Part shown: in pieces, positions 3,073 to 18,669 of the stretch
Layout of the letters: the number at the start of each line of letters is the position of its first letter
How positions within the stretch are numbered: position 1 is the stretch's first letter
From: Elioraea sp.
GTDB lineage: Bacteria; Pseudomonadota; Alphaproteobacteria; Acetobacterales; Acetobacteraceae
Length of the DNA stretch: 64,000 bases
Direction of reading: 5' to 3'
NCBI RefSeq assembly: GCF_022842375.1
Contig: NZ_JALHPR010000005.1
Location: 134,370-198,369, forward strand
The notes under the pieces: generated by a model
Told to the model about the DNA's origin: nothing
The model's database searches: none
What the model saw: only the letters and a program-made list of their open reading frames with translations
Position numbers and translations under genes: made by a program

Positions 3073-5258
3073 GCGCGCCGAAGGTCCGCGTGCTTGAGCG
3101 GGAGCGAGCGCACCCGCTTGCCCGTGGCGGCGAAGATCGCATTCATCACGGCCGGTGCGGCCACCGCGATCGTCGGCTCGCCGACGCCGCCCCAGAACCC
3201 GCCGGACGTGATGATGATGGATTCCACCGCCGGCATCTCGGCCAGCATCAGTGACGGATAGGTATCGAAGTTCTCCTGCTCGACACGCCCGCCCTTCACC
3301 GTGATCTCCTGGTGCAGCGCCGCGCCCAGGCCATAGACGAACGAGCCCTCGATCTGCGCCTCGATCTGCTGCGGGTTCACCGCATGGCCGCAATCGGTCG
3401 CAGCCACGATGCGGTGGATCGAGAGCTTGCCGTCGTTCGAGACCGAAACCTCGGCGCAGGCAGCGACGTAGCTGCCGAAGCCGTGCGTCTGGGCAAGGCC
3501 GCGGAAGCGCCCGGCAGGCGCGGGCGTTCCCCAGCCGATGCGCTCCGCCACCGCGTTCAGCACCGCCAGATGCTTCGGATGGTTGGTCATGAGCGCGCGG
3601 CGGAAGGCGAGCGGGTCCTTCCCGGCCGCGTGGGCCAGTTCGTCGATGAAGCACTCGAGGTAGATCGCGTTCTGGTTCAGGTTCACCCCGCGCCAGAACC
3701 CTGGCGGAACCGATGGGTTCCGCATCGCGTGGTCGATCAGCAGGTTCGGGATCGTGTAGCCTATATCGGCTTCGCCGCCGCTGGCGTTCAGCCCCTGGAA
3801 CACGACCGGGTCGCGCCCGTCGCGGATGTTCTGCGGGAAGGTGCCAGCGACGATCGACTGCCCCGAGATGCGCATGGTGAGGCCGACGAGGTTGCCCTGC
3901 GCATCGAGCCCGCCGACGAGCTTGCACTGCGTCACCGGGTGGAACCTGCCCTGCAGCATGTCCTCCTCGCGCGACCAGATCATCTTGATCGGCGTTCCCG
4001 GCATCTGCTTGGCGATCAGCACCACCTGGGTCACCCAGTCATGCACGGCGCCGCGCCGGCCGAAGCCGCCGCCGAGGTGGATCTTGTGCACGTCGCACTG
4101 GGTCGCCGGAAGGCCTGATGCCGCCGCGGTTGCCGCGAGCGCCGCCTCGCCGTTCTGCGTCGGCGTCCACACCTCGCAGCGATCGGCCGTCCAGAGGGCC
4201 GTGGCGTTCATCACCTCCATGCACGCATGGTTCTGGTGCGGATACGCGTAGACAGCCTCGATCCGCTTCGCCGCACCCGTGATCGCTGCGCGCGCATCGC
4301 CCGCACGGTTGCCGACGACAGCCTCCGGCGCATCGAGCCCTTCCTTGAGCCAGGCAGCGACGGCCTCTGAGGAGGCGTTCGCGTTCGGCCCCTCGTCCCA
4401 CACGATCGGCAGCGCATCGAGCGCCTTCTTCGCCCGCCACCAGGTATCGGCCACGACCGCGACCGCGTTGTCGCCCACCGGGACGACGCGCTTGACGCCC
4501 GGCATCCCTTGCACGGCCGCGGCGTCGAAGCTCCTCACCTTGCCGCCGAAGATGGGGCAGGCCCGCACGGCGGCGTTGAGCATGCCCGGCAGGGTGAGGT
4601 CCATGCCGTAGACCTGCGAGCCGTTCGTCTTCTCGACCGTGTCGAGGCGCGCGACCGACTTGCCCGCGATCTTCCACGCGCGTGGATCCTTCAGCGGAAC
4701 GTTCTCCGGCGGCGTCAGCCTGCCGGCCGCCTCGGCAACGCGGCCATAGGTGGTCGTCCGCCCCGTCGGGGTGTGGGTGATCACGCTGTTCGCGGCCGAG
4801 CATTCAGCCGCCGGAACGTTCCACGCCGTGGCGGCTGCCTGGACGAGCATCATCCGCGCCGCCGCACCGCCCTTGCGCACGTAGTCCTGGCTTTCGCGGA
4901 TGCCGCGGCTGCCGCCGGTGGAGAAGTTCCCCCAGACGCGGCGTCGGGCGAGGTTCTGCCCCGGCGTCGGATACTCCGTCGTCACCTTCGCCCAGTCGCA
5001 CTCGAGCTCCTCGGCCACGAGCTGCGCCAGCCCGGTGAGCGTTCCCTGCCCCATCTCCGACCGGGCGATGCGGATCACAACGGTGTCGTCGGGCCTGATC
5101 ACCACCCAGGCATTGACCTCCGGCGGGATTGCGGGTGCGGCGCCCTGCGCGACGGCGCTGCGCGTCAGCGGCACGTGGAAGCCGAGGGTGAAGGCGCCGG
5201 CAGCAGCCGTGGCTGTGGCCATCAGGCCGCGGCGGGAGAGTGTGCTCTCTGTCGTCAT
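3069..5258 (-). CDS. Molybdopterin-binding large subunit of an IorB/aldehyde-oxidase-type (xanthine dehydrogenase family) oxidoreductase, Tat-exported
   Basis: 729 aa from MTTESTLSRRGLMATATAAAGAFTLG (Tat signal) within ORF 3069..5786. Typical segments include EMGQGTLTGLAQLVAEELE, HLGGGFGRR and GGVGEPTIAVAAPAVMNAIFAATG. The 176 aa upstream of this start are Arg-rich artefact. Confidence 0.85.
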   Translation of the reverse strand: MTTESTLSRRGLMATATAAAGAFTLGFHVPLTRSAVAQGAAPAIPPEVNAWVVIRPDDTVVIRIARSEMGQGTLTGLAQLVAEELECDWAKVTTEYPTPGQNLARRRVWGNFSTGGSRGIRESQDYVRKGGAAARMMLVQAAATAWNVPAAECSAANSVITHTPTGRTTTYGRVAEAAGRLTPPENVPLKDPRAWKIAGKSVARLDTVEKTNGSQVYGMDLTLPGMLNAAVRACPIFGGKVRSFDAAAVQGMPGVKRVVPVGDNAVAVVADTWWRAKKALDALPIVWDEGPNANASSEAVAAWLKEGLDAPEAVVGNRAGDARAAITGAAKRIEAVYAYPHQNHACMEVMNATALWTADRCEVWTPTQNGEAALAATAAASGLPATQCDVHKIHLGGGFGRRGAVHDWVTQVVLIAKQMPGTPIKMIWSREEDMLQGRFHPVTQCKLVGGLDAQGNLVGLTMRISGQSIVAGTFPQNIRDGRDPVVFQGLNASGGEADIGYTIPNLLIDHAMRNPSVPPGFWRGVNLNQNAIYLECFIDELAHAAGKDPLAFRRALMTNHPKHLAVLNAVAERIGWGTPAPAGRFRGLAQTHGFGSYVAACAEVSVSNDGKLSIHRIVAATDCGHAVNPQQIEAQIEGSFVYGLGAALHQEITVKGGRVEQENFDTYPSLMLAEMPAVESIIITSGGFWGGVGEPTIAVAAPAVMNAIFAATGKRVRSLPLKHADLRRA

Positions 5259-5272
5259 GTGCCCGTTCCCCC

Positions 5273-5743
5273 TCAACCGCTCGTCGCCGGGCCGCCCTCG
5301 GCGGCCCGCTTGATGCCCGCGAGCACCCGGTTGTAGGTGCCGCAGCGGCAGATGTTGGTGATCTCGGCGCGGATCTGGTCCTCGGTCGGCTTCGGCGTCT
5401 GCGCGAGCAGCGCGGCCGCGGCCATCAGCATGCCCGACTGGCAGAAGCCGCATTGCGGCACGTCGAGCTCGACCCACGCCTTCTGCAGCGGATGCTGCGT
5501 CCCCGCGGGCGCGAGGCCCTCGATCGTCACGATTTTCTGCGCCTCGGTGAAGGCGGAGACGGGCGTCGCGCATGAGCGCACGGCCACGCCGTCGACATGC
5601 ACGGTGCAGGCGCCACAGGCGGCGACGCCGCAGCCATACTTCGTTCCGGTCAGCCCGATCTGCTCGCGCAGCACCCAGAGGAGCGGCGTGTCGTCCTCGA
5701 CCGCCACGTCGATCGTTCGTCCATTGACGTTCAGCTTGGCCAT
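5273..5743 (-). CDS. [2Fe-2S]-binding small subunit (IorA/CoxS type)
   Basis: 156 aa from [13 protein letters not shown]. Cys clusters [11 protein letters not shown] and CGFCQSGM...CRCGTY are typical of the two [2Fe-2S] sites. It lies 14 nt upstream of the large subunit. Confidence 0.9.
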
Positions 5744-5965
5744 GTCGCTCCCCGTTCGTTGGGCCTTGGGTCGTAGCCCCCGGCACGTCCCTTCGCTCCC
5801 AGCGGCCTTGGGCCGTCTTGGCAGGGGCGCAACCGGTTGGTGCAGCCAGCCTACGCTATACGCCGGGAGAGGCAATCCCAGAGGGCAATGCGCGCCTCAT
5901 GATGTTGTGACCGGCTTCGTGCGATGCTGCGCTGCGCTGCCGCAGCCCGAGGAAGCGGCCGTCGC

Positions 5966-6892
5966 ATGACCGGAGTGATGCCACCGATGACCATGGCCAG
6001 CCTGCCGGACGAAGCCGTCCACCTGCCTTTCGATGACGGACCGTTCCGCATGGCGATGGGCCTCGTCGCCTGTCCCGAGGATGACTGGCTCGAGATCGAC
6101 GCTCGCTACCATGAGGAGATGGCAGAGCGTCGCGACCTGCTGGCCGCGCGCCATGCCGAGGTCTTTGCTGCCTGCCCGGGCTCTGAGCCGGCGCGCGTGG
6201 AGGTGCTGGAAGTTGTCGCCGCGCATCTTGTGCGGCGATACCCCGCCTGGTTCATGCGTGAGTGCGACACGCTGCATAACGCGTTGACGGGCGAGACGTG
6301 GACGCTCACGGCCCCGCACTGCGATCCGCTCGCGCTCGCTGGCCTGCTGGTGCAGGAGGATCTATGCCTCATCCGCCCTGGCGCGGACGCGGCCGTGCTC
6401 GAAGCAGCGGTGGTGTGCGCGCCGAGCCGCTGGCGGCTTGCGGAGAAGATCGGTCGACCGTTGATGGCGGTTCACGCACCGGTGCCGTTCTACGGAGACA
6501 GGCTCGGCAGCCCGGTCGATCGCTTCATGCGGCAGCTGAAGCCCGGGCGGATCGCTGTCAGGATGAACTGGTCGATCGTCGATGATCCTGCGCTGTTCCA
6601 GCCACATGCTCCATCGCGCCACGAGGCCTGCTCACCGATCACTTCGAGCAATGCCGGCGAAACACTGCATTTCCGCATGGAACGGCAAGGGTTCCGCCTG
6701 ATGGAGCGATCAGGCTCGGTGCTGTTCACCATCCGCGTCCACAGCTATCCGCTGGCCCGTGTCGTTCGTCTCCCCGGCGTCGCGGCGCGGCTCGCCGGGG
6801 CGGTGCGAGCACTGCCGCCCGAGATGTCCGCATACAAGGCCCTCGTGCCGTTCCTCGATCCGCTGCACGCCTATCTCGCGGCGGTGGCGTGA
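5966..6892 (+). CDS. DUF3445 family protein (haem-dependent oxidative N-demethylase alpha-subunit-like)
   Basis: ORF 5924..6892. The sequence (DDWLEID..YHEEMAERRDLL.., QEDLCLI, VCAPSRWRLAEKIG) matches my memory of DUF3445. The start is uncertain: in-frame ATGs lie at 5924, 5966, 5978, 5987 and 5993, and 5966 has GAGGAAG 10 nt upstream. Confidence 0.7.
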   Translation: MTGVMPPMTMASLPDEAVHLPFDDGPFRMAMGLVACPEDDWLEIDARYHEEMAERRDLLAARHAEVFAACPGSEPARVEVLEVVAAHLVRRYPAWFMRECDTLHNALTGETWTLTAPHCDPLALAGLLVQEDLCLIRPGADAAVLEAAVVCAPSRWRLAEKIGRPLMAVHAPVPFYGDRLGSPVDRFMRQLKPGRIAVRMNWSIVDDPALFQPHAPSRHEACSPITSSNAGETLHFRMERQGFRLMERSGSVLFTIRVHSYPLARVVRLPGVAARLAGAVRALPPEMSAYKALVPFLDPLHAYLAAVA

Positions 6893-8535
6893 TGCGGCGG
6901 ATGGCGAAGCGGCCCGATATCCTCGTCGGTGCCGCGATCGGCCTTGGCATGACGGCGCGCGCGGCGGCCGACGGGGGTGCGGATTTTGTTCTCGCGCTCA
7001 ACGCCGGCCGGTTCCGCGTGATGGGTGCGCCCTCGCTCGCCGCGATGCTGCCGATCAGCGACAGCAACGCCTTCACTGACGGCTTCGCCCGATCCGAGAT
7101 CCTCGACCGCGTGGCCATCCCCGTCTTCTTCGGTGCGGCGGCGTGCGACCCGCGCGTGGATGTCATGGCCCTCGTCACGCGAATCCGGCGTATCGGCTAT
7201 CGCGGCATCGCCAACTTCCCGACCGCCATCCATCATGACGGGCCGTTCCGCGCGGCGCTGGAGGCAGCCGGCCTCGGCTTCGCGCGCGAGGTCGAGATGC
7301 TTCGCGCGGCGCGCGGAATCGGGCTCGCCACGCTCGGCTATGCCAAGACGCGCGCGGAGGTCGATGCCCTGCTCGATGCCGGCGTCGAGCATCTCTGCCT
7401 GAACTTCGGCTGGAACGCCGGCGGCAGCATGGGCGTTCCGGGCGGCGTTCCGCTCGATGATGCGGCCGAGCGTGCGCGGCGGATCTTCGCCCATGTGCGA
7501 CGTATCGCACGCGGCACGCTCTGCCTGGTCGAGGGCGGGCCGATCGTCGATCCGACGCACATGATCCGCGTGTGCGATGCCTCGCGCGCCGATGGCTATG
7601 TCGGCGGCTCGACGCTCGATCGCCTGCCGCTCGAGATGTCGGTGATGCAGACCACCTCGGCCTTCAAGACCGCGCGGCTGTTGCGTGACGACCGCGCCGG
7701 CGGGGAGCAGCGGATTGTGGGGCTGCTTGGCGGGTCGCAGGCAGCGCGGACGCTCGCCGAACGGATCGCGAGGCTCGTCGCGACCGACCTGCCGATCGTC
7801 ATCGAAGGCGAGGCCGGTGCCGGCCGCACCTCCGCGGCGCGGGCGATCCATGCCACGAGCCGCCGTGGTGGCAGTGTCGGGTTCATCGATGCGCGCGAGG
7901 ACATCACGGGGGCATTGTTTGGCGAGCGGGGCCGAAACATGCTGGGTGCGGCGCAGAACACGGTTGTCATCGAGCATGCCGATGCGCTGGCGCCGACGCT
8001 TCGCGCACGGCTCGCGGAATGGATCGAGCGCGGCACGTTCGATCGTTTCGCCCGGCCAGACGAACGGCGGCCACGCGCGCGCCTGCTGTTGACGCACCCA
8101 CCTGGCGGCGAGGCGCTCGCCCGCGCCCTCTCGGCACAGCGCCTTGCCGTTCCGCCGCTGCGCGAGCGGATGGAAGACCTTCCAGTCATTGCCCGCGCGA
8201 TGCTGGGTGCAACGGGAAGGCCTGTGCCGGCCCTTCAGCCCGCCGCGCTCAGGCTGCTGATGGCACAACGCTGGCCCGGCAACCTGCGCGAACTGCAGCA
8301 CGCCCTGGCACGCGCGGCGCTCGAGGCCCGTGACGGGCGGATCGATGCCGTGGTGATCGAGCGCGTGCTCGGCCCCGCCCAGGTTGGCGCTGTCACGGAA
8401 GCGATGGATGAGCGTGCCTGGATTCTTGATGCGCTGCGTCGGCATCGTTTCCGACGTGGCGAGACGGCAGCGTTCCTCGGCATCGCTCGGAAGACGCTCT
8501 ACAACCGGATGCGGCGGCTTGGCCTCGACAACTGA
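6892..8535 (+). CDS. Transcriptional regulator: PEP-hydrolase-like TIM-barrel sensor domain + degenerate sigma-54-interaction (AAA+) domain + Fis-type HTH
   Basis: The N-terminus (ILVGAAIGLGMTARAAADGGADFVLALNAGRFRVMG...GIANFPTAIHHDG) is homologous to CDS 15206..16036. The centre has GEAGAGRT, VVIEHAD and WPGNLRELQH. The C-terminus has an HTH (ETAAFLGIARKTLYNRMRRLG). Its ATG overlaps the DUF3445 stop (GTGATG). Confidence 0.8.
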   Translation: MRRMAKRPDILVGAAIGLGMTARAAADGGADFVLALNAGRFRVMGAPSLAAMLPISDSNAFTDGFARSEILDRVAIPVFFGAAACDPRVDVMALVTRIRRIGYRGIANFPTAIHHDGPFRAALEAAGLGFAREVEMLRAARGIGLATLGYAKTRAEVDALLDAGVEHLCLNFGWNAGGSMGVPGGVPLDDAAERARRIFAHVRRIARGTLCLVEGGPIVDPTHMIRVCDASRADGYVGGSTLDRLPLEMSVMQTTSAFKTARLLRDDRAGGEQRIVGLLGGSQAARTLAERIARLVATDLPIVIEGEAGAGRTSAARAIHATSRRGGSVGFIDAREDITGALFGERGRNMLGAAQNTVVIEHADALAPTLRARLAEWIERGTFDRFARPDERRPRARLLLTHPPGGEALARALSAQRLAVPPLRERMEDLPVIARAMLGATGRPVPALQPAALRLLMAQRWPGNLRELQHALARAALEARDGRIDAVVIERVLGPAQVGAVTEAMDERAWILDALRRHRFRRGETAAFLGIARKTLYNRMRRLGLDN

Positions 8536-9119
8536 GAGTCTGCCGCATCGCGCCAGGCGAATGGCTCTCCTCCTTCGATCAGCACGTGGCTTGCCTGCTC
8601 TGGCCATGGCCGCGCCGGGCCCTCCCCGAGGCCGGGGTGGAGCAGGATCCGCCGCAGCCCGAGCGATAGCGCGATCGTTGCCGCATCGTCCGAGACGGCG
8701 CAGGCGATCGGCGCCATTCCATGCTCGGCGAAACGCAGCAGCATGCGGAACTCGGCTTCCGCGCGCATGCCAACCGAGGCCAGCGCCGCTGACGTCTCGG
8801 GACCGAAGAACTGGATCGTCGGGAAGTTCACCACCTCGGTAATGCCAGCTTCTGCCAACGCCGCCGCGACATCAGCGACGCGGAGGAAGGGGTCGCTTGC
8901 GAACACGCCCGCCACGGGTGCGCCCGCCCGCAGCCGGGCCCGCCCACGGCAGGCGGCAAGCAGGGCGCCGTTGATGTCGAGCACGGGCAGCAGCGCGACG
9001 AGGGGCCACCGCGCCGGCGGAAACTGCGCGAGCGCCGGCAGGAACACCCCGTCGCGCCGACGCTCGGGCCTGACACCGGCGAGGGAGGCGAGGGGATGCA
9101 GGGTTCGCACCATACCCAA
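8499..9119 (-). CDS. Short PEP-hydrolase-like (TIM-barrel signal-transduction family) paralogue
   Basis: 206 aa. PVAGVFASDPFLRVADVAAALAEAGITEVVNFPTIQFFGPETSAALASVGMRAEAEFRMLLRFAEHG...ILLHPGLG aligns by eye with [12 protein letters not shown]...[36 protein letters not shown]...ILVPHLGLT of CDS 15206..16036. The start is TTG at 9119 or ATG at 9113. The last 37 nt overlap the convergent regulator gene. Confidence 0.55.
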   Translation of the reverse strand: MGMVRTLHPLASLAGVRPERRRDGVFLPALAQFPPARWPLVALLPVLDINGALLAACRGRARLRAGAPVAGVFASDPFLRVADVAAALAEAGITEVVNFPTIQFFGPETSAALASVGMRAEAEFRMLLRFAEHGMAPIACAVSDDAATIALSLGLRRILLHPGLGEGPARPWPEQASHVLIEGGEPFAWRDAADSQLSRPSRRIRL

Positions 9120-9160
9120 TATTACCCGTTAATGACGCGCAATCCACCTTGCGACGAGCA

Positions 9161-9174
9161 TGCCTGATCAGGCA
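9161..9174. promoter_or_regulatory. Perfect 14-bp palindrome TGCCTGATCAGGCA in the divergent promoter region
   Basis: Read directly from the sequence. It lies between the short paralogue (start 9113/9119, minus) and the first permease gene (9242, plus), and is a candidate operator. Confidence 0.3.
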
Positions 9175-9241
9175 CACCCATGGTGGGAGCGGCCAGCCGA
9201 ACAGATGCGGCCGAGGGAGACACAAGGGAGACGGGCCGGGG

Positions 9242-10117
9242 ATGGACCTCGCCGCGACCATCGTGCTGAACGGGCTCACGCTCGCTGCGCTTTATTTCAT
9301 CGTCGCGAGCGGCTTCTCGCTGATCTTCGGCCTCATGCGCGTGGTGAACATGGCGCATGGTACGCTCTATCTGGTTGCCGGCTATGTCGGCTACCGCGTC
9401 TTCGAGCCGCTCTATGACGCTGACGTCTGGTGGGCATGGTATGCCGGGCTCGCGGCCGGCATTGTCGCGGCGGCGGTGGCCGGCGCCCTGTTGCAATGGG
9501 TGCTGCTGTCGTGGATGCAGGGCCAGGAACTGCGCCAGGCACTCGTCACGATCGGCGTCTCGATCATCGTGGCTGACCAGGTGCTGGCGATCTTCGGCGG
9601 CACGCCGCGGCAGTTCTTTGCCCCAGACGCGATCTTCGGTTCGACGCGCGTTCCCTTCGTCGGCGGCTACCCGACCTTCCGCCTCGTGCAGATCGGCATC
9701 GCGATCGCCGTCGGGATTGCGCTTTGGCTCGTCCTCAATCGCACGCGCCTCGGCATGATGATCCGCGCCGGTGTCGATGACCGCGAGATGCTCGGCGCCT
9801 GCGGGGTGAACGTGCCGCGCGTCGGCATCGCGGTGTTCGCGCTGGGCGCGGCGCTCTGCGGCCTCGGCGGCGTGATCGGCTCGACGGCACAGCCGCTCGC
9901 GCTTGGCCAGGACGGACGCTTCCTGCTCATCTCGCTCGTCGTCGTCATCGTCGGCGGCATGGGCTCGATCACCGGCACGGCGATCGGCGCGATCCTCGTC
10001 GGCCTTGCCGAGCAGATCGGCCAGGCGATGTTTCCGACCTACTCCGTCATCCTCACCTTCGTGATCATGGTGGCGGTGCTCGCGCTCCGGCCGCAGGGGA
10101 TCCTCGGCCGTGCGTAG
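9242..10117 (+). CDS. Branched-chain-amino-acid-type (LivH-like) ABC permease
   Basis: 291 aa from MDLAATIVLNGLTLAALYFIVASGFSLIFGLMRVVNMAHG, with AGGGAG upstream. It is the in-frame part of ORF 9149..10117. Confidence 0.85.
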   Translation: MDLAATIVLNGLTLAALYFIVASGFSLIFGLMRVVNMAHGTLYLVAGYVGYRVFEPLYDADVWWAWYAGLAAGIVAAAVAGALLQWVLLSWMQGQELRQALVTIGVSIIVADQVLAIFGGTPRQFFAPDAIFGSTRVPFVGGYPTFRLVQIGIAIAVGIALWLVLNRTRLGMMIRAGVDDREMLGACGVNVPRVGIAVFALGAALCGLGGVIGSTAQPLALGQDGRFLLISLVVVIVGGMGSITGTAIGAILVGLAEQIGQAMFPTYSVILTFVIMVAVLALRPQGILGRA

Positions 10118-11108
10118 CGCTGCCTTCCGCGCGATCGGTGCGCTGCTGCTCGTCGCAGCTCCCTTCCTGCTGCTCGTCGTGCTGCCGCAGAACCAGGCGC
10201 TGTTCTGGACGGCCAACGTGCTTGGCAGGGCGATCGTGTTCGGCATCATCGCGCTGTCGCTGAGCTTCCTCGCCACCTATGGCGGGTTCATCTCGCTCGC
10301 GCAGATGATGGTGGCGGGCTCGGCCGGCTACGCAGTCGCGATCCTGGTCGATGGTGCGGTGCCGACGATCGTGGGCGGCGTTCCCTATGCACTCGCGATG
10401 CCGATCGCGCTCGTCGTCGCCACGCTGATGGGGCTTCTCGTCGGCGCCGTGGCCGTACGCACGCGCGACATCTACCTGCTCATGATCACGCTCGCGGTGG
10501 CGATGGGCGTGTTCCGCTTCGTCGAGACCAACATTGCTTGGTTCAACGGCTACGAGGGCATCCGCAATGTCGTGGGGCCGCAGCTGTTCGGCACGGATTT
10601 CCGGAATCCGTACGTATTCTATTACGTCTCGCTCGTGGTCGCCGCGCTGCTCTATGGCGGCGTCCTCTACCTCGTGCGGACACCGTTCGGGCTCGTGCTC
10701 CAGGGCATCCGCGACAATGACAGGCGTGTCGCTGCACTCGGCTACTCGGTGAAGCTTCACCGCATCGCCGCGTTCGGCGTCGCCGGCTTCATCGCAGGCG
10801 CTGGCGGGGTGCTGGCAACGATCTACAACATCGGCATCTCACCCGGCACCATCGGGCTTGGGCCGACGGTGAACGTGCTGATCATGAGCGTGATCGGCGG
10901 GCTCGGCCATCCAGCCGGCGCCTTCATCGGCTCGCTGATCTTCACTGTGTTCGACACCTTCGCGGCCAACATCTACGACCGCGACCGCTTCAATACGCTG
11001 ATCGGCCTCGTGTTCCTGGTGATCGTGCTCGTCTCTCCCGACGGCATGGTCGGTCTTGGCACGCGGCTCCGCAGCCTGCTCGGGGCACGCCGTGCGCCAC
11101 AGCCCTGA
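10110..11108 (+). CDS. LivM-like ABC permease
   Basis: 332 aa, multi-TM, with typical ..SLSFLATYGGFISLAQ.. and ..RVAALGYSVKLHRIAAF.. segments. The GTG start overlaps the upstream stop by 8 nt. Confidence 0.85.
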   Translation: MRSAAFRAIGALLLVAAPFLLLVVLPQNQALFWTANVLGRAIVFGIIALSLSFLATYGGFISLAQMMVAGSAGYAVAILVDGAVPTIVGGVPYALAMPIALVVATLMGLLVGAVAVRTRDIYLLMITLAVAMGVFRFVETNIAWFNGYEGIRNVVGPQLFGTDFRNPYVFYYVSLVVAALLYGGVLYLVRTPFGLVLQGIRDNDRRVAALGYSVKLHRIAAFGVAGFIAGAGGVLATIYNIGISPGTIGLGPTVNVLIMSVIGGLGHPAGAFIGSLIFTVFDTFAANIYDRDRFNTLIGLVFLVIVLVSPDGMVGLGTRLRSLLGARRAPQP

Positions 11109-11177
11109 GGAGCGAGGCCCCCGGCACGGTGCCGGACGCGCCACCAACGAAAATCAACACAAAACAGGAGGAACATC

Positions 11178-12461
11178 ATGACGACGACACTCACGCGCCG
11201 GCGCGCCCTGCTCGGCACGGCAGGCATTGCAGCGGGGCTGGCAACGCCGCTTGCGGCCCCCGCGATCGCACAAGGAGCGCCCATCCGGCTCGGCGGGTTG
11301 ACCACGCTCGAAGGCCCCTTCGCAACGGGTGGCCAGGATGCCTTCCGCACCGTTCAAATGGAATTGGAGCGGATCAACTACACGGTCGGCGGCCGCAGGA
11401 TCGAGTTCATCCGCGAGAGCTCGAACGCACAGGCCGATGTCGCGCTGGCGCGTGCACGCAAGCTGATCGAGCAGGATAACGCCGACATCATCCTCGGGCC
11501 CCTCTCGGGTGCAGAGGGCATTGCGCTGCGCGACTATTCGCGCACGCTTACCGGGCGGACGATCGTCAATGGCAGTTCCGGGGCGTCCGACACGACGCTG
11601 CGCAACCCTTCGCCGAACTTCTTCCGCTTCTCCACCGATGGTACCCAGTGGATGGCCGGTCTCGGCCGTTACGTGTACGAGACGCTCGGCGTGCGCGAGG
11701 TCGCGGTGACCGCCGGTGACTACGCCTTTCCGTACGCTCAGGTGTTCGGCTTCAACATCGAGTTCTGCCGGCTCGGCGGCCGAGTCACGCAATACTGGGC
11801 GCCGCTCGGCACGACGGATTTCGGCGCGCAGATCGCACAGATCAACCGCTCCAGCGCCGGCGCGCTCGTAATCGTGCATGGCGGAACCGACGGGCTCGCC
11901 TTCATGACGCAGTATGCCCAGGCGGGCGGGCAGAAGCCGCTCATCGCCGGCTCGATCATGGCTGACCAGACGATGCTCGCCGCACGCGGCCCGCATCGGC
12001 GCGTGATGGTCGGCATGGTCTCCGGCGGCCCGATCGCGGATGTGATCGACGATCCCGATTGGCGCGAGTTCGTCGAGCGCTACCGCCGCCGTTGGCTGAA
12101 CGAGGGCGGGTTCCCGTCACCCTCGATCCACGCGGTCAACTACGCCACGAACCTCTGGGGCATCCTGAAGGCGCTGGAGGCCGTCCGCGGCGATCTTTCG
12201 AACAACCAGCAGGCGTTCCAGCGCGCGCTCGCCGCCGCCGAGTTCAAGGCGCCCACGGGCGCAAACGTGAAGCTTGACCACAATCGCCAGGCCATCTCCG
12301 ACATCTTCCTCAATCGCGTCGAGGAGCGGGACGGTCGTGCGCAGGTGGTGGCCTTCGCCCGGGCCAATGCGGTGAACCAGACCCTCGGCCTGCCTGAGGC
12401 ACAGTTCCTCGCCCTCGGCGCGCCCTCGCGCGACAATGCGGGCTGCGTGCGCCCATCCTGA
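11178..12461 (+). CDS. Periplasmic substrate-binding protein, Leu/Ile/Val (type I PBP, amide/urea-like) family, Tat signal
   Basis: 427 aa with MTTTLTRRRALLGTAGIAAGLATPLAAPAIAQG and an AGGAGG RBS. IRLGGLTTLEGPFA..DIILGPLSGAEG is typical of the family. Confidence 0.85.
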   Translation: MTTTLTRRRALLGTAGIAAGLATPLAAPAIAQGAPIRLGGLTTLEGPFATGGQDAFRTVQMELERINYTVGGRRIEFIRESSNAQADVALARARKLIEQDNADIILGPLSGAEGIALRDYSRTLTGRTIVNGSSGASDTTLRNPSPNFFRFSTDGTQWMAGLGRYVYETLGVREVAVTAGDYAFPYAQVFGFNIEFCRLGGRVTQYWAPLGTTDFGAQIAQINRSSAGALVIVHGGTDGLAFMTQYAQAGGQKPLIAGSIMADQTMLAARGPHRRVMVGMVSGGPIADVIDDPDWREFVERYRRRWLNEGGFPSPSIHAVNYATNLWGILKALEAVRGDLSNNQQAFQRALAAAEFKAPTGANVKLDHNRQAISDIFLNRVEERDGRAQVVAFARANAVNQTLGLPEAQFLALGAPSRDNAGCVRPS

Positions 12462-12527
12462 CGGCCTGACCTGTACCAGCGGGGCCGGCGAACGCCGGCC
12501 CCGCCCCTTGTCCTGGACCCCATAACC

Positions 12528-13289
12528 GTGACAGTCCCTGCCCTCAGCCTGCGGAATGTCAGCCGTCGCTTCGGCGCGCTGCAGGCCGTGCGCGATGTCA
12601 GCTTCGACGTCATGCCGGGCGAGCGCCGGGCCGTGCTCGGCCCGAACGGGGCGGGCAAGACGACGCTGTTCAATACGATCTGCGGCGACTTCCCGCCGAG
12701 CGCAGGCAGCATCAGCCTGTTCGGCCGCGACATCGCCAGCGCAAGCGCGCATGAGCGCACGCGGCTCGGCATCGGCCGCACCTATCAGACATCGCTGCTG
12801 TTCAACGGGCTCACGGTCCTCGATAACCTGTTCATCGCCGTGCGCGGATTGATGCCCAACCGTTTCTCATTCCTTCGGCCGCGCCGCGATGACACCGCGA
12901 TGGCCAAGGCGCGCACCCTCGCTGACCGTTTCGGCCTTGCACCGCTGGTCGCCGAGAAGGTCGTCAATCTAAGCCACGGCCAGCGCCGGCAGCTCGAGAT
13001 CGGGATGGCGCTTGCCGGCGACCCGAAGCTCCTGATGCTCGACGAGCCGGCGGCCGGGCTTTCACCTGGCGATCGCCCGGGCCTGCTGGCGATGCTGCAC
13101 GCCCTGCCGCGCAGCGTCACGTTGATCCTGATCGAGCACGATATGGATATCGCGCTTCCCGCTGCGGACATCGTGACGGTGATGAAGGACGGCGAGGTCG
13201 TGGTCGAGGCGCCACCCGACAGGATTGAGGACAATCCGATCGTGCAGGCGATCTATCTCGGCAGCGGGCTGGCCGGGGGTGGGCACTGA
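12528..13289 (+). CDS. LivG-like ABC ATPase
   Basis: Walker A GPNGAGKTT, signature LSHGQRRQL, Walker B LLMLDEPAAG. The start is GTG. Confidence 0.85.
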   Translation: MTVPALSLRNVSRRFGALQAVRDVSFDVMPGERRAVLGPNGAGKTTLFNTICGDFPPSAGSISLFGRDIASASAHERTRLGIGRTYQTSLLFNGLTVLDNLFIAVRGLMPNRFSFLRPRRDDTAMAKARTLADRFGLAPLVAEKVVNLSHGQRRQLEIGMALAGDPKLLMLDEPAAGLSPGDRPGLLAMLHALPRSVTLILIEHDMDIALPAADIVTVMKDGEVVVEAPPDRIEDNPIVQAIYLGSGLAGGGH

Positions 13290-13996
13290 TGCTGTCGGTG
13301 ACCGACCTTCATGTCCGCTTCGGCGAGGCGCATATCCTGCAGGGCGTAAGCATCGCGGTTGGCCGAACGCCGCTGGCAATCGTCGGGCGCAACGGCATGG
13401 GCAAGACCACGCTCTGCCAGGCGATCATGGGCCTGGTGCGGTCGAGCGAGGGCGCGGTGACGCTCGCCGGAACACCGCTGACCGGCAAGCTTCCCTACCA
13501 GGTCGCGCGCAGCGGCGTCGCGCTCGTGCCGCAGGGGCGGCGCACCTTCCCTTCGCTCTCGGTGCATGAGCACCTGCTGCTGGTCGCTCGCACGCGGGAC
13601 GCGGCATGGACCATCGATCGTGTCTACGACACTTTCCCGCGTCTCGCCGAGCGGCGACGCAACGGCGGCACCGAGCTTTCGGGCGGGGAGCAGCAGATGC
13701 TCGCGATCGCGCGTGCGCTGCTGATGAACCCGACCCTCGTCATCATGGACGAGCCGAGCGAGGGGCTCGCGCCTGTGATCGTCGACCAACTGATCGGCGT
13801 GCTGCGCACGCTCGAGGGCGACGGGATGGGCCTCTTGCTCGTCGAGCAGAACCTCCGGGTCGCAACCGAAGTTGCGTCCGAGGTGTCGATCATGGTGACC
13901 GGCAGGATCGCCACGACCCTGCCTGCGCACGTGCTTGCTGCCGATACCGAGATCCAGCGCCGCTACCTGGGCGTCGCGGCTGGCGGACATCACTGA
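13289..13996 (+). CDS. LivF-like ABC ATPase
   Basis: Walker A GRNGMGKTT, signature LSGGEQQML, Walker B VIMDEPSEGL. The ATG overlaps the upstream TGA. Confidence 0.9.
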   Translation: MLSVTDLHVRFGEAHILQGVSIAVGRTPLAIVGRNGMGKTTLCQAIMGLVRSSEGAVTLAGTPLTGKLPYQVARSGVALVPQGRRTFPSLSVHEHLLLVARTRDAAWTIDRVYDTFPRLAERRRNGGTELSGGEQQMLAIARALLMNPTLVIMDEPSEGLAPVIVDQLIGVLRTLEGDGMGLLLVEQNLRVATEVASEVSIMVTGRIATTLPAHVLAADTEIQRRYLGVAAGGHH

Positions 13997-14007
13997 GGAG
14001 GAAGGCG

Positions 14008-15204
14008 ATGGCGAAGGTCTATGTCATCGGGACGATGGATACGAAGGGCGAGGAGCTTCGCTTCGCGGCATCATGTGTGCGCCGTGCTGGCGCAGAGCCC
14101 GTGCTCGTCGATGTCGGAACGAAAGGCGCAGGCGTGGGGGCGGATGTCACCGCGGCCGAGATCGCCGCCCATCACCCTGACGGCGCTGCCGCCGTGCTCG
14201 GCCTCAACGATCGCGGCGTTGCCGTTGCCGGCATGGCGGAGGCGCTGACGCGCTGGCTCGTTGCGCGCACCGATATCGGTGCCGTGCTCGGCCTCGGCGG
14301 TTCGGGCAACACTGCACTCGTGACGGCGGCGATGCGCGCGCTGCCCATCGGCGTGCCGAAGCTGATGGTCAGCACCGTCGCGTCGAGCAACGTCGCACCC
14401 TATGTCGGGCCGGCCGACATCGCGCTGATGTACTCGGTGGTCGACGTCGCCGGGATCAATGGAATCTCACGTCGCGTGCTCGCAAACGCGGCGCACGCCG
14501 CCGCCGGCATGGCAATGAACCACCCGCCCGCGGCAACTGAGGCCGAGAAGCCTGGCATCGGCCTTTCGATGTTCGGCGTCACGACGCCCTGCATCACGAT
14601 GCTGCGCGAGGTGCTCGAAGGGTCCTACGAGTGCTACGTGTTCCACGCCACGGGTGCCGGCGGGCAGAGCATGGAGAAACTCGCCGATTCGGGCCTCGTG
14701 TCGGCGCTGCTCGACATCACCACGACCGAGGTGCCCGATCATCTCTTCGGCGGCGTGTTTCCCTGCACCGAGGACAGGTTCGGCGCAGCGATCCGCACGA
14801 AGCTGCCCTATGTCGGCAGCGTGGGTGCCGTCGACATGGTGAATTTCGGTGCCAAGGAGACGGTGCCCGCCCATTACGCGGGCCGGACGCTCTACGTGCA
14901 CAATCCGCAGGTGACGCTGATGCGTACGACGCCGGAGGAGAACCGCGAGATCGGCGCGTTCATCGTCTCGCGGCTCAACCGCATGGAGGGGAAGGTGCGG
15001 TTCCTGCTGCCGCTTGGCGGCGTCTCGGCGATCGATGTGCCGGGCATGCCATTTCATGATCCGGAGGCAGATCGTGCGTTGTTCGACACGATCCGTTCGC
15101 ACTTCGTCACGACGCCCAATCGCCGGCTGATCGAGGTCGGAGCCGCCGTGAATGACCGCGCCTTCGTCGATGCCACCATCGCCGCCTTCAGGGAGATTGC
15201 CTGA
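14008..15204 (+). CDS. UPF0261 / Tm-1-like ATP-binding domain protein
   Basis: 398 aa from [37 protein letters not shown], inside ORF 13606..15204, with GAGGAGGAAG upstream. [31 protein letters not shown] matches my memory of UPF0261. Confidence 0.8.
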
Positions 15205-15205
15205 G

Positions 15206-16036
15206 ATGCCCCGCTTCACGCGCGCCGTGCTGCTCGAGAGGTTCAATGCCATGGTAGCGCGCCGCGAGCCGATCATCGGCGGCGGCGCGGGAACGGGACT
15301 GTCGGCCAGGTGCGAGGAGGCCGGCGGGATCGACCTGATCGTCATCTACAATTCCGGCCGCTATCGCATGGCTGGGCGCGGATCGCTTGCCGGGCTTCTC
15401 GCCTACGGCAACGCGAACGAGATCGTGAAGGAGATGGCACGCGAGGTGCTGCCCGTCGTCAAGCGCACGCCAGTGATCGCCGGCGTGAACGGCACCGACC
15501 CGTTCGCGATCATGGATCACCTGCTGGATGAGCTGAAGGCGCTGGGCTTCGCCGGGGTGCAGAACTTCCCGACCGTCGGGCTGATCGACGGAACGTTCCG
15601 CGCCAATCTCGAGGAGACCGGCATGGGCTTCGGGCACGAGATCGACATGATCCGCCTCGCCAATGCGAAGGACATGCTCACCACGCCCTACGTGTTTAAC
15701 GCGGATGAGGCAGCCGAGATGGCAAAGGCGGGGGCCGACATCCTCGTGCCGCATCTCGGGCTTACCACGGGCGGAGCGATCGGCGCCCACACCGCACTGA
15801 AGCTCGAGGACTGCCCCGCCCTGATCGACGAGTGGGCGGAAGCCGCGCGCCGCGTGCGGCCGGACATCATCGTGCTCTGCCATGGCGGTCCGATCGCGAC
15901 ACCAGAGGATGCGTCCTACATCCTCCGCAACACGAAGAACATCAACGGCTTCTACGGCGCGTCATCGATGGAGCGGCTGCCGACCGAGATCGCGCTCACC
16001 GAACAGACGCGCAGCTTCAAGTCCATCAGTTTCTGA
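15206..16036 (+). CDS. Phosphoenolpyruvate-hydrolase-like TIM-barrel protein (usual partner of UPF0261)
   Basis: 276 aa from [34 protein letters not shown]. It starts 1 nt after the UPF0261 stop and contains [13 protein letters not shown] and [12 protein letters not shown]. Confidence 0.8.
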
Positions 16037-16046
16037 AGGAGCCACC

Positions 16047-16964
16047 ATGGCACGCGCCTATGCCTCCACCGTCCTCGACGCGCCGATCGAGACCGTCTGG
16101 GCAACGATCCGCGACTTCAACGGGCTGCCGTCATGGCACCCGGCGATCGCGCGGTCGGAGATCGAGGATGGGCTCGATGCAGACGCGGTCGGCTGCATCC
16201 GCCGCTTCTGGCTGCAGGATGGCACGATGGTGCGCGAGCGCCTGCTGTCGCTCGATGACCGGATGACGAGCTTCACCTACAATTTCGAAACGCCCGCCTT
16301 TCCGGTGAAGAACTACGTCGCGCGCATCCGGCTCATGCCCGTCACGAAGACCGATCAGACCTTCGCCGAGTGGGAAGCGAATTTCGACGAGGCGCCGGAG
16401 GACGAGGGCAAGTATGTCGATATCGTCTCGAACGGCGTGTTCCAGGGCGGGTGGGATGCGCTGAAGAAGGCGCTCATCGTCCGCGCCAAACCCGAGGGTG
16501 CGAGGCGCTGGGCGGGCTTCCCGCCGAACAAGGTCTGGTGCAGCACGGTGATCGACGCGCCGGCCACGAAGGTGTGGGGCGTGATCCGCGACTTTGCCGG
16601 CATGGGCGCGTGGCACGAGGCGATCACGAAGATGCACATGCTTGGCGGCGTCCGCAGCGACAAGGTGTCGGGTACGCGCGACTTCCTTTTCGGCGAGGGG
16701 CATCTCAACGAGAAGCTGCTGCATCTCGATGACAGCGAGATGAGCTTCTCCTACTGCATCACCAAGTGCGACATCCCGTGGATGAACTACATCAGTGGGC
16801 CGCGGCTCTGGCACGTCACGGACGGCAACCGCTGCTTCGGTGCGTGGACGGGCGACTGGATCGCCGCGCCGCAGGATGACGTTGCCCTGATCCCGCTCGC
16901 AACGAACGACGTCTACCTCAAGGCGTTCGACACCGTCGCGGAACGGATTTTCATGAGGGGCTGA
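16047..16964 (+). CDS. Tandem SRPBCC (START / polyketide-cyclase-like) double-domain protein
   Basis: 305 aa with an internal duplication visible by eye: STVLDAPIETVWATIRDFNGLPSWHPAI versus STVIDAPATKVWGVIRDFAGMGAWHEAI. It starts 10 nt after the upstream stop. Confidence 0.7.
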   Translation: MARAYASTVLDAPIETVWATIRDFNGLPSWHPAIARSEIEDGLDADAVGCIRRFWLQDGTMVRERLLSLDDRMTSFTYNFETPAFPVKNYVARIRLMPVTKTDQTFAEWEANFDEAPEDEGKYVDIVSNGVFQGGWDALKKALIVRAKPEGARRWAGFPPNKVWCSTVIDAPATKVWGVIRDFAGMGAWHEAITKMHMLGGVRSDKVSGTRDFLFGEGHLNEKLLHLDDSEMSFSYCITKCDIPWMNYISGPRLWHVTDGNRCFGAWTGDWIAAPQDDVALIPLATNDVYLKAFDTVAERIFMRG

Positions 16965-16970
16965 GAGAAA

Positions 16971-16998
16971 GGGGGGCGGCGCCACCACGCCACCCCCC
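16971..16998. terminator. Hairpin between convergent genes (possible bidirectional terminator)
   Basis: GGGGGGCGGCG-CCACCA-CGCCACCCCCC forms an 11-bp stem with one mismatch. It is flanked by GAGAGAAA, i.e. a U-rich tail on the minus-strand transcript. Confidence 0.5.
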
Positions 16999-17004
16999 TC
17001 ACCC

Positions 17005-18291
17005 TCATTCCGCGGCGATCGGCAGGCGCTCGCGCGCGATCGTCCGCCGCGGGTCCTTCCAGAGCCGCCCGTCGGTCATCACCATCGCGATCTTGTCCTT
17101 GTCCGCGAGCAGCGTGACATCGGCCAGCACGTCGCCTTTCACGAGCAGCAGGTCGGCGAGGAAGCCCTCGCGCACCTGGCCGAGTTCGCTCTTCATGCCC
17201 ATCAGGTCGGCGCCGACACGCGTCGCGCATTGCAGCGCCTCGTTCGGCGTGTAGCCGAAGAAGCGGACGAAGTGGCTGATGTCGCGCGCGTTCTGGCCCT
17301 GTGGCGTGAAGGCGAAGCCATAGTCGCCGCCGATCACCACGCGGATGCCGCGCTTGCGCATCTGGTGATAGGTCTCGCAGCTGACGTCGAACGCCTTGTC
17401 GAAGCCGCGGGCGATCAGCCAGTCCTTGCTGATGCCGATCTTCTCGTGCTCGTACATCAGGTTGTAGAGCAGGCCGAAGGCCGGGCCGACGAAGTGCTTG
17501 TGCTTGTTCCGCTCGAGCATGTCGAGCGCTTCTGCGTCTGACTGGTCGCAGTGGTAGATGCAGTCGACCCCCGCCTCGACGCAACGCTTCACGCTTTCGG
17601 CCGACCGCGAGTGCGCCACGAGCATCTTGCCGAACTCATGCCCGACCTCGACGGCGGTGGTGATTTCCGCGCGCGACATCGGTGTGATGGAAGCCTTGGC
17701 GTGGGTAACGAAATCATCGCCGGAGACGTTGATCTTGAGGTTGTCCACGCCCTCACGCATGCAGAGGCGCGCGACCTTGCGCATCTCGTCAACGCCGTCG
17801 GCGATCAGCGCGAAGCTCTCGCGGTAGAGATGGACCCGCCGCTCGTCACCCAGCCCTGCTGTCGTGGTGATCTCCGGGCTTGCCGCGCGCATGCGTGGGC
17901 CGATGAAGTCGCCCGCATTGATGGCGTTGCGCGTGACGACGCCGAGGCGAAGCTTGGCCGAAGCCGCCTCGAACAGGCTGGTGAACCCGTGATCAAGCAT
18001 CACCCGGGTGTTCTTGATTGTCATGAGCAGGTGCTCCTCGGGCGGAATTTCGCCGAGTTGCGCCGGCTCGCTCACCCCCGTGAAGGTTGGATGACTGTGC
18101 CCCTCCACCATGCCCGGCATGAGCGTATGGCCAGTGCCGTCAATCACGTCTGCCCCGATAGCATCGATCGTGCCGAGATCCGTCGCGACCGCGCGGATGC
18201 GGTTGCCCTCGACGAGGACATCAGCGGGATACGCGTCGGCGCCGCTGGCGTCGAACACGCGTGCGTTTCGGATCAGAATGCGTCCAGACAT
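17005..18291 (-). CDS. Metal-dependent amidohydrolase family protein
   Basis: 428 aa from MSGRILIRNARVFDASG..LMPGMVEGHSHP (HxH motif), with AGGGAGG upstream. The remainder of ORF 17005..18699 is an artefactual extension. Confidence 0.8.
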   Translation of the reverse strand: MSGRILIRNARVFDASGADAYPADVLVEGNRIRAVATDLGTIDAIGADVIDGTGHTLMPGMVEGHSHPTFTGVSEPAQLGEIPPEEHLLMTIKNTRVMLDHGFTSLFEAASAKLRLGVVTRNAINAGDFIGPRMRAASPEITTTAGLGDERRVHLYRESFALIADGVDEMRKVARLCMREGVDNLKINVSGDDFVTHAKASITPMSRAEITTAVEVGHEFGKMLVAHSRSAESVKRCVEAGVDCIYHCDQSDAEALDMLERNKHKHFVGPAFGLLYNLMYEHEKIGISKDWLIARGFDKAFDVSCETYHQMRKRGIRVVIGGDYGFAFTPQGQNARDISHFVRFFGYTPNEALQCATRVGADLMGMKSELGQVREGFLADLLLVKGDVLADVTLLADKDKIAMVMTDGRLWKDPRRTIARERLPIAAE

Positions 18292-18669
18292 GAACTGACC
18301 TCCCTTGGTTCCGCGCGTTTTCCTCGCGCGATCCTCCATCTTCCCAAGGAGGGCATCGCGTTTCAACAGTGACGATGCGCTTCGTGCCGGGCAAATGCTG
18401 TCGGCGCAGCCGGCGTTGCGGGATGGGATGTGCGCCGTCCCTATGCTCCGTCGGAGAACGCCGTACTGTGCCATGCGCGCCCGGCACCATTGCGCTCGTG
18501 CAACACAAGGGAAGCGACAGGTCGACCCATGGGCGATCTGTCGGGCTCCATGTTGGGGAGTAGCGAAAGAAGCCCCGGCCAACCGCACGCGTGATCCGGA
18601 CGGAGCCTGGCGTTGGCCCTCGCTGCGGTATCCCAACGAGGAGACCTGACGCTCAGTCACGCATGGGCA

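Follow-up and report, generated by a model that had tools for sequence, protein, structure and literature searches.

A conserved module joining an ABC importer to the UPF0261/TIM-barrel protein pair in Elioraea and related genomes

This study concerns a locus in a 64,000-nt stretch of DNA from Elioraea sp. (contig NZ_JALHPR010000005.1, positions 134,370 to 198,369). The whole stretch is called the window, and all coordinates are window positions. The locus joins an ATP-binding cassette (ABC) importer to a protein pair, which consists of a UPF0261 (Tm-1-like) protein and a TIM barrel of the PEP_hydrolase family, and to a tandem SRPBCC protein. At the centre of this conserved uptake-and-conversion module, which has not been described before, stands the UPF0261/TIM pair. 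In 39 related loci the LivF-type ATPase of the importer and the UPF0261 protein form a single polypeptide. We give about even chances to a fuller reading, in which the locus belongs to a widespread module that imports a compound, converts it in an ATP-dependent and probably phosphorylating reaction of the UPF0261/TIM pair, carries out an SRPBCC-assisted step and is induced through a TIM-barrel sensor.

The importer genes come first on the forward strand. They encode a LivH/UrtB-like permease (9242..10117; BPD_transp_2, PF02653, 4e-32), a LivM/UrtC-like permease (10110..11108; PF02653, 3e-33), a substrate-binding protein with a twin-arginine N-terminus (11178..12461; Peripla_BP_6, PF13458, 2e-52), a LivG/UrtD-like ATPase (12528..13289; ABC_tran, PF00005, 3.5e-30) and a LivF/UrtE-like ATPase (13289..13996; PF00005, 5e-27). 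They are followed on the same strand by the genes for the UPF0261/Tm-1-like ATP-binding protein, a presumed kinase (14008..15204; N- and C-terminal Pfam domains, 2e-61 and 4e-87), the PEP_hydrolase-like TIM barrel (15206..16036; PF09370, 1e-130) and the tandem SRPBCC protein (16047..16964; Polyketide_cyc2, PF10604, two stretches, 1e-35). From a DUF3445 gene upstream of the operon through the SRPBCC gene, the gaps between successive genes are -1, 706, -8, 69, 66, -1, 11, 1 and 10 nt, so that within 9242-16964 they range from -8 to 69 nt. The LivH-like, binding-protein, UPF0261, TIM and SRPBCC genes each have a Shine-Dalgarno sequence in front of them. Judging from the spacing, the genes for the importer, binding protein, UPF0261 protein, TIM barrel and SRPBCC protein appear to form one tightly packed transcription unit. 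A consensus scan for terminators and promoters returned no terminator-like site and nothing informative inside the operon, and an Rfam scan of 5000-19000 matched no RNA family. A GC-rich hairpin, read by eye, lies between the SRPBCC gene and a convergent amidohydrolase gene. The region studied has a G+C content of 65-70% and spurious open reading frames (ORFs) are therefore abundant; the eleven named genes are nonetheless real. Every gene and Pfam family of the original prediction was found where that prediction had placed it, with PEP_hydrolase at three loci, UPF0261 at 14008-15204 and Polyketide_cyc2 twice at 16047-16964. The arrangement is more than a product of chance.

The neighbourhood of UPF0261 genes was surveyed in 80 loci from species-representative genomes, which are the closest 80 of at least 592 relatives and have UPF0261 identities of 53-83%. 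Further loci were added through exact-protein and plasmid look-ups. The all-locus comparisons cover 88 related loci. ORFs were chosen by homology support and clustered, and the clusters were named with Pfam. Only loci with enough flanking DNA enter each context count, hence the differing denominators. The TIM barrel is the obligate partner of UPF0261 in this module and lies directly 3' of it in 71 of 76 loci. A Liv-type ATPase is directly 5' of UPF0261 or fused to it in 45 of 77 loci, and in 39 of these the fusion is in frame. Liv permeases are present in 34/63 loci and the binding protein in 32/63. SRPBCC genes follow the pair in 51/67 loci, usually as two separate genes of ~145 aa, and the gene set recurs in Alpha-, Beta- and Deltaproteobacteria. 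A cluster of UPF0261 and PEP_hydrolase genes with a Liv-type importer and SRPBCC is thus a real conserved unit. The description of this unit as a complete pathway was too generous, since only three non-transport proteins are constant. The accessory enzymes vary between lineages and include amidohydrolase (20/80 loci), FAA hydrolase, molybdenum hydroxylase, flotillin, cupin and Gfo/Idh/MocA proteins. The flotillin gene stands between the TIM and SRPBCC genes in 31/67 loci. The encoded protein (Band_7 and Flot domains, 540-980 aa; for example L061 12023-13717 and L087 12117-15065) has a long coiled coil rich in Glu, Ala and Arg; wherever it occurs the locus also has the ATPase-UPF0261 fusion, and the window lacks it.

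Five architectures, A to E, recur among the loci. Type A, that of the window, is found in Elioraea, Arenibaculum, Belnapia, Falsiroseomonas and Paracraurococcus and is the sole type with a TIM-sensor regulator and a short TIM copy. Type B, from Burkholderiales and others, adds an FAA hydrolase, an alpha/beta hydrolase, one or two amidohydrolases, a flotillin and a VOC protein. Type C (Bradyrhizobium, Phyllobacterium, Hoeflea and Roseisalinus) adds an AraC regulator, Fe-ADH-like and aldehyde dehydrogenase genes, a flotillin and a CoxMSL-type molybdenum hydroxylase with MoxR. In type D, from rhizobia and Devosia, a divergent ABC system of the CUT1 sugar type is accompanied by a cupin and by a regulator of the GntR or TetR kind. 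Type E includes a xylose-isomerase-like gene, an SRPBCC gene, a rhamnose-mutarotase-like gene and a CUT1 system. In the haloarchaeal plasmid pHTUR01 of Haloterrigena turkmenica (L089 8998-11491) the gene order is TIM-cupin-UPF0261 with 4-nt overlaps; genes for an AGE-family epimerase and an aldo/keto reductase lie nearby and there are no ABC genes. A cupin takes the place of SRPBCC as third partner both here and in the rhizobial type-D loci. A Terrarubrum flagellatum plasmid (L008 1494-10837) carries two UPF0261-TIM pairs within 9 kb, each beside Gfo/Idh/MocA and cupin genes. One of these pairs is accompanied by SRPBCC and a 616-aa TIM-sensor regulator, the other by a GntR regulator and a CUT1 ABC system.

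The in-frame fusions of the LivF-type ATPase to UPF0261 belong to types B and C and occur in about half of the related genomes. The fused proteins are ~700-765 aa long with a linker of 77-137 aa, and their halves are 45-59% and 55-58% identical to the LivF-type and UPF0261 proteins of the window, respectively. Examples are L072 8939-11236, L055 9071-11218, L041 9029-11200, L050 9029-11215 and L031 2891-5149. Pfam confirms ABC_tran and both UPF0261 domains in five fusion ORFs and in four independent database proteins (P0122, P0127, P0128 and P0133). In a neighbour-joining tree the fused forms make up one large clade, which is consistent with one ancient fusion kept through wide divergence. As a Rosetta-stone link, the fusion connects UPF0261 with the importer much more firmly than the mere neighbourhood of their genes. 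The tie to a dedicated importer, which had been proposed from gene order in the window, is therefore stronger than first suggested. No description of a LivF-UPF0261 fusion was found in the literature searched.

The importer has the make-up of the HAAT family, with two BPD_transp_2 permeases, two ABC_tran ATPases and a Peripla_BP_6 binding protein in one operon. Its subunits are 42-60% identical to orthologues in other Liv-linked architectures (types B and C for the LivH-like permease). Scores against the NCBIfam equivalog models lie below the curated cut-offs (UrtB 162 bits against 250, UrtC 108 against 296, UrtA 56 against 493, UrtD 209 against 304, UrtE 205 against 286), and the Liv models score lower still. 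Identity as a urea (UrtABCDE) or branched-chain amino-acid (LIV-I) transporter was therefore rejected. The best model matches for the permeases and ATPases are nevertheless Urt models, at scores under the cut-offs; the binding protein is not UrtA. The twin-arginine stretch at the N-terminus of the binding protein, TRRRALL, was read directly from the sequence. Its closest match in the PDB is 4ZPJ (4e-45), followed by 4EVQ, 4EY3, 4EVS and 4F06 (1e-15 to 5e-10), and urea binders match at ~1e-8. We take 4EVQ, 4EY3, 4EVS and 4F06 to be benzoate-derivative binders from R. palustris, which a literature search by PDB code did not confirm. The Liv-type binding proteins RPA0668 and RPA0985 bind benzoates (PMC3223731). 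We infer that the cargo of the importer is a small organic solute.

UPF0261 is a large family with 4,464 clusters at 50% identity (E<=1e-3) in bacteria, archaea, fungi and all land plants. The window protein matches the N-terminal domain PF06792 with 204 bits, the C-terminal domain PF23189 with 291 bits and NF002673 with 594 bits (cut-off 520). It is 88% identical to the UPF0261 protein of Elioraea tepidiphila, which marks the source of the DNA as an Acetobacteraceae-like alphaproteobacterium. Its PDB matches are Tm-1 (3WRY, 2e-89) and MarK (9MPY, 2e-58). MarK (multiple aromatic kinase, Saro_1862) is a stand-alone UPF0261 protein from Novosphingobium aromaticivorans, and acts as an ATP-to-ADP kinase on the phenolic hydroxyl of acetovanillone and related phenolic ketones (Hall et al., J Biol Chem 2025, PMC12624787). 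This was presented as the first catalytic activity for the UPF0261 domain (PMC12624787). Wild-type MarK has a glutamate at position 16 and needed E16K to be active. According to the original prediction, no reaction had been assigned to the UPF0261/TIM pair. MarK makes this statement outdated for the UPF0261 domain (PMC12624787); for the pair it stands, as we found no paper that assigns a reaction to it. A literature search by COG, InterPro and Pfam identifiers and by Sinorhizobium meliloti locus tags likewise found no functional study of the pair.

The structure-based residues of MarK were mapped onto the window UPF0261 protein and their conservation was counted over 88 TIM-partnered homologues. 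The ATP-site motif D11-T12-K13, which corresponds to D14/T15/K16 of MarK and includes the equivalent of K20 of Tm-1, is invariant in 88/88. The lysine needed by MarK is native in the window protein (Lys13). The pocket core G190/H213/H298 (G195/H219/H304 in MarK) is also invariant. At five positions that give MarK its specificity, T196, E198, F283, I285 and H348 are replaced by V191, T193, M277, N279 and I/L342 (I342 in the window). The pocket speaks against membership of a MarK-type acetovanillone kinase group: the G/H/H core is kept, but V191, M277, N279 and I342 stand in place of T196, F283, I285 and H348. By analogy with MarK, the only member of the family for which kinase activity has been shown, the window protein is presumed to be an ATP-dependent kinase. 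From the residues at the pocket we infer that the ligand of the UPF0261/TIM pair is not the acetovanillone of MarK. The pair is most likely catalytically competent, as the retained sites indicate.

The TIM barrel matches the PEP_hydrolase profile over positions 3-267 with 435 bits. A phmmer search matched it to Mll9387 (PDB 2P10) at 3e-120. The protein was also modelled with AlphaFold2 (predicted local distance difference test, pLDDT, 77) and compared with known structures by Foldseek, in which the alignments to 2P10 chains show 65-66% identity. Conservation of the barrel is strong: it is 66-76% identical to the TIM barrels of other architectures, and 117 of 276 residues are at least 97% invariant across 81 loci, among them enzyme-specific His, Glu, Arg and Ser residues. 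A 2016 study, in which the TIM barrel is called TBST, reported that the two families co-occur and co-evolve (r=0.77-0.89) and that 97% of TBST-bearing bacterial genomes have UPF0261 (PMC5028733). Fusions of UPF0261 to the TIM barrel are found in both orders. An insertion in S. meliloti SMa1334 gave no symbiotic phenotype, and no expression was detectable (PMC3462710). A Brucella homologue is cited as attenuated in a signature-tagged mutagenesis screen (PMC2364660). A fragment related to the TIM gene is present in 57 Klebsiella plasmid records (hits H33-H40, K. pneumoniae, e.g. NZ_MT647837.1 4198-4341). It is unannotated, has ~48 codons, is 67-69% identical to TIM residues 6-53 and is apparently a gene remnant.

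We propose the following mechanism for the module. The importer would bring in a small organic solute. The UPF0261 protein would phosphorylate a hydroxyl or enol group with ATP, as suggested by MarK, the retained D-T-K site and the two pocket histidines. The TIM barrel would present the substrate or convert the phosphorylated product, and a further step, in which the ligand is bound or converted, would fall to the SRPBCC protein, or to a cupin in other lineages. The ligand sensor of an NtrC-type regulator independent of sigma-54 would be a TIM-barrel paralogue without the enzyme-specific residues, and a short half-barrel paralogue may modulate the regulator circuit. Neither the pocket nor the TIM barrel varies with the type of transporter, and this conservation suggests that the pair performs one fixed chemistry on one ligand or moiety. 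Clues to the substrate are weak. The amidohydrolase belongs to a group of N-acyl-amino-acid-type amide hydrolases, and the contexts of types D and E and of haloarchaea look sugar-like (Gfo/Idh/MocA, xylose-isomerase-like, cupin, rhaM, AGE epimerase). It is speculation that the clues could be reconciled by a compound in which a sugar or hydroxy-acid moiety is combined with one of the amino-acid or amide kind. We also consider it possible, though unlikely, that UPF0261, docked on or fused to the LivF-type ATPase, phosphorylates with the TIM barrel the solute as it leaves the translocation pathway. This would be ABC transport-coupled phosphorylation, a form of group translocation, which is otherwise known from the phosphotransferase system (PTS), and the TIM fold would have been reused as a transcriptional sensor.

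Several points weigh against the uptake-and-conversion mechanism. The single clade of fused proteins may reflect a single event, the evidence for co-transcription is gene spacing, and the kinase action of TIM-partnered UPF0261 proteins is argued from the MarK precedent. The nearest UPF0261 relatives outside the window's clade adjoin sugar-type CUT1 ABC systems. Beyond 2P10, Foldseek finds generic TIM barrels only (template modelling scores of 0.5-0.6 and 11-16% identity), including methylisocitrate lyase and PanB, which bear on a kinship with phosphonopyruvate hydrolases of the PEP mutase/isocitrate lyase type, and also triosephosphate isomerase, ThiE, Pdx1 and fructose-bisphosphate (FBP) aldolase, all of them similarly weak matches; the label "phosphoenolpyruvate (PEP) hydrolase" therefore carries no functional information. 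Finally, Liv-linked, CUT1-linked and unlinked loci and plant Tm-1 all share V191, T193, M277, N279 and I/L342 without exception, a pattern more in keeping with a common metabolite or an interaction surface than with an imported nutrient that varies.

This last observation leads to an alternative that we hold to be rather unlikely. The UPF0261/TIM pair, with SRPBCC or a cupin, would act on a common downstream or central metabolite, such as an enolisable 2-oxo acid or a sugar phosphate, and not on the imported compound; it would be a generic cassette of a kinase and a TIM barrel for phospho-substrates, recruited by different catabolic operons. Such a role would account for a pocket and TIM barrel that stay the same in Liv-type, CUT1-type, haloarchaeal (no ABC) and plant Tm-1 contexts while the accessory enzymes differ radically between architectures, and a distant paralogous pair does adjoin pyruvate kinase. 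However, a role late in a pathway can hardly explain why the ATPase fusion has been retained over 39 divergent genomes, the type-A operon contains no other catabolic enzyme, and the existence of a dedicated regulator with a TIM sensor implies that the specific inducer is the ligand of the TIM barrel.

That regulator is encoded upstream of the importer operon, on the forward strand (6892..8535; ORF options 6889, 6892 and 6901). Its start is ATG 6892 or ATG 6901, and homologues begin at the residue encoded at 6901. The domain order is a PEP_hydrolase-like TIM sensor (residues 2-261, 3e-72, 243 bits), a degenerate AAA+ domain with a partial Sigma54_activat match and AAA_lid_14, and a Fis-type HTH_8 domain. 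The sensor is 31% identical to the enzyme TIM over 261 aa (E=7e-36). It keeps 50 of the 117 enzyme-invariant residues and has lost the candidate catalytic residues E37/E38, those of one loop, E137, H183, H226 and the SSME motif, which is the pattern expected of a binding-only paralogue. The AAA+ domain is truncated: the Sigma54_activat match covers profile positions 2-51 of 168 only, Walker A reads GEAGAGRT (Lys to Arg), Walker B reads IEHAD and there is no GAFTGA. No TGGCAC-N5-TTGC-like site with up to 2 mismatches is present in 8536-9241, and an alignment of the intergenic regions of three loci is likewise without a convincing -24/-12 element. A sigma-54 promoter and a working sigma-54 activator were rejected on these grounds, and the regulator should act, probably, independently of sigma-54. 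It is present in 6/7 type-A loci (56-82% identity) and in none of types B, C and D. The proposal of a cognate regulator with a second TIM copy thus holds as far as the TIM sensor is concerned, and fails in that the regulator belongs to one clade only and is not a working sigma-54 activator.

The third TIM copy is a short half-barrel paralogue of ~205 aa on the reverse strand, 8499..9113 if it starts at ATG 9113 or 8499..9119 if it starts at TTG 9119. It had been predicted on the opposite strand, which is correct, and between the DUF3445 gene and the regulator, which is not: the regulator is on one side of it and the ABC genes are on the other. It converges on the regulator, whose 3' end it overlaps by 37 nt, and diverges from the ABC operon. 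BLASTP relates it to the enzyme TIM (E=1e-5) and to the regulator (E=6e-6), so that with the regulator-enzyme match all three predicted TIM-barrel similarities have statistical support. Pfam assigns it partially to PEP_hydrolase (43 bits, cut-off 33.8; 3.7e-11; profile 57-181 of 267). It consists of the mid-barrel only and is without the N-terminal GGGAG, one further loop and the C-terminal HGGP and GASSMERLP. The ORF is intact in 7 loci of different genera (e.g. L001 4522-5142 and L005 4539-5132) and public annotations also list it as a gene. Like the TIM-sensor regulator, the short TIM copy is restricted to the window's clade.

The start codon of the short paralogue abuts a 13-nt box, CCCAATATTACCC, at 9115..9127, to which no strand is assigned. 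The box is found in three type-A loci, those in L001 (Elioraea) and L005 (Arenibaculum) being identical bar one base, and is a candidate for an operator or leader element. At 9161-9174, 34 nt downstream of CCCAATATTACCC, there is a perfect 14-nt palindrome, TGCCTGATCAGGCA, which is not kept in the other two loci.

The use of a TIM barrel as a sensor bears on a second alternative, which we think quite unlikely, in which the UPF0261/TIM pair is regulatory and not catalytic. In that case UPF0261 would be a sensor of ATP or of a ligand, and the two proteins would jointly gate the ABC importer. UPF0261 is fused to the C-terminus of the nucleotide-binding domain, the site of regulatory domains in other ABC importers such as those of MalK, MetN and OpuA. 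The older name of the TIM family is "TIM-barrel signal transduction", and the same fold is the sensor of the adjacent regulator. Plant Tm-1, moreover, acts through binding and not catalysis (PMC5028733). On the other side, MarK is a true enzyme, the pair is also found without any adjacent transporter, and 67 invariant residues of the enzyme TIM are missing from the sensor copies, an indication that the enzyme does more than bind.

A MarK-like system is improbable. In it the cargo would be a phenolic acid or ketone derived from lignin, and UPF0261 would phosphorylate the phenolic hydroxyl of this compound as in acetovanillone catabolism. In its favour, MarK is the sole characterised family member, the relatives of the binding protein after 4ZPJ outscore urea binders and Liv-type proteins can bind benzoates (PMC3223731), and types B/C add FAA hydrolase, alpha/beta hydrolase, VOC protein and molybdenum hydroxylase. 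Against it, the five pocket residues are replaced (T196V, E198T, F283M, I285N, H348I), MarK is a distant outgroup to the window protein in the neighbour-joining tree, and MarK has no TIM partner and belongs to an acvCDEF carboxylase operon, of which neither the genes annotated with Pfam at the locus nor the recurrent clusters in the 88 related loci include carboxylase or phosphatase homologues.

The remaining neighbours are less closely associated with the module. The DUF3445 gene (5966..6892, forward strand), now named HODM_asu-like in Pfam (PF11927, 1e-71, 241 bits), had been noted immediately upstream of the cluster. It is not conserved with the cluster: a homologue is present in 0/88 related loci, and in no other type-A locus does one stand beside the regulator. 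DUF3445 was therefore rejected as part of the system, and is a lineage-specific neighbour. Its stop codon overlaps the possible ATG of the regulator (TGATG, 6889-6903), which suggests translational coupling of the two genes in this genome only. The alpha-subunit-like domain of a haem-dependent oxidative N-demethylase (HODM) is present, and none of the annotated neighbours resembles a HODM partner subunit, no specific search for these having been made. The SRPBCC protein, placed in its superfamily by the Polyketide_cyc2 domain, has 7TMU, 3F08 and XoxI (3CNW) as PDB relatives.

The amidohydrolase (17005..18288, reverse strand; Amidohydro_1) is convergent with the operon and is a probable accessory enzyme. 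It is present in 3/7 type-A loci (83-93% identity) and lies inside the operon in 13/15 type-B loci (42-47%). Its closest solved relatives are the Arg carboxypeptidase Cc2672, Xaa-Pro dipeptidase and ochratoxinase-type amide hydrolases. Beyond it, 19437-24034 encodes an Opp/Dpp-type binding protein, an amidase (NF004815, 680 bits, cut-off 506) and a TauD-like dioxygenase, which may form a separate amide or peptide utilisation cluster. Directly upstream of the locus, at 3069-5740 on the reverse strand, is a two-subunit IorAB-like molybdenum hydroxylase with 2Fe-2S and MoCoBD subunits; no flavin adenine dinucleotide (FAD) subunit was seen. The 2Fe-2S subunit clusters with CoxS-like subunits inside type-C operons at 37-42% identity, which may reflect general family similarity. 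Sulfur-oxidation genes follow on the same strand at 1086-3142, with SoxA (TIGR04484, 210 bits, cut-off 110) and a SoxZ domain.

The UPF0261/TIM family includes the tomato virus-resistance protein Tm-1, and its only measured activity comes from MarK, an evolved outlier without a partner. The operon offers what the plant and fungal genes lack: a binding protein that can be screened, a sensor that is a paralogue of the enzyme, and natural ATPase-UPF0261 fusions that predict a physical complex. The identity of the ligand would name the reaction of the family and put to the test the idea of a kinase hard-wired into an ABC importer. If transport-coupled phosphorylation were true, the operon would reveal the ancestral biochemical function of plant Tm-1-like proteins.

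The module resembles several known systems in part. The LivJHMGF, UrtABCDE and R. palustris HbaEFGHI-type importers of the HAAT family share the five-component make-up of the window importer; the difference is that orthologues of the latter in other genomes carry the LivF-type ATPase fused to UPF0261. The regulator has the order of sensor, AAA+ and HTH_8 domains of NtrC-family enhancer-binding proteins with enzyme-like sensors, and matches AAA_lid_14 and HTH_8, but its AAA+ core is truncated and Walker B is lost. Mll9387 (2P10), a structural-genomics "putative phosphonopyruvate hydrolase" whose function has never been shown, belongs to the same Pfam family (PF09370) as the window TIM barrel.

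Pyruvate phosphate dikinase and PEP synthase offer a looser analogy, as they too may be seen as an ATP-grasp-like nucleotide module combined with a TIM-barrel substrate module (for the MarK fold see PMC12624787). Uptake physically linked to phosphorylation would likewise resemble the group translocation of the PTS. The window proteins differ from all three in having no sequence relationship to them and no phospho-histidine swivel domain.

MarK shares with the window protein the two-domain UPF0261 family, the D-T-K motif of the ATP site and the G/H/H core of the C-domain pocket. It differs in being a stand-alone homodimer encoded in the acvCDEF operon, without a TIM partner or transporter, and in the five pocket positions. 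Plant Tm-1 and Tm-1-like proteins (PDB 3WRV-3WRY) are eukaryotic, their known role is binding of the tomato mosaic virus (ToMV) replicase, and they have no transporter, SRPBCC or regulator context. In the plant proteins UPF0261 and the TIM barrel are fused, which matches their adjacent but separate genes in the window. Tm-1 is the closest solved relative, and has in common with the window protein all the pocket residues that separate TIM-partnered proteins from MarK.

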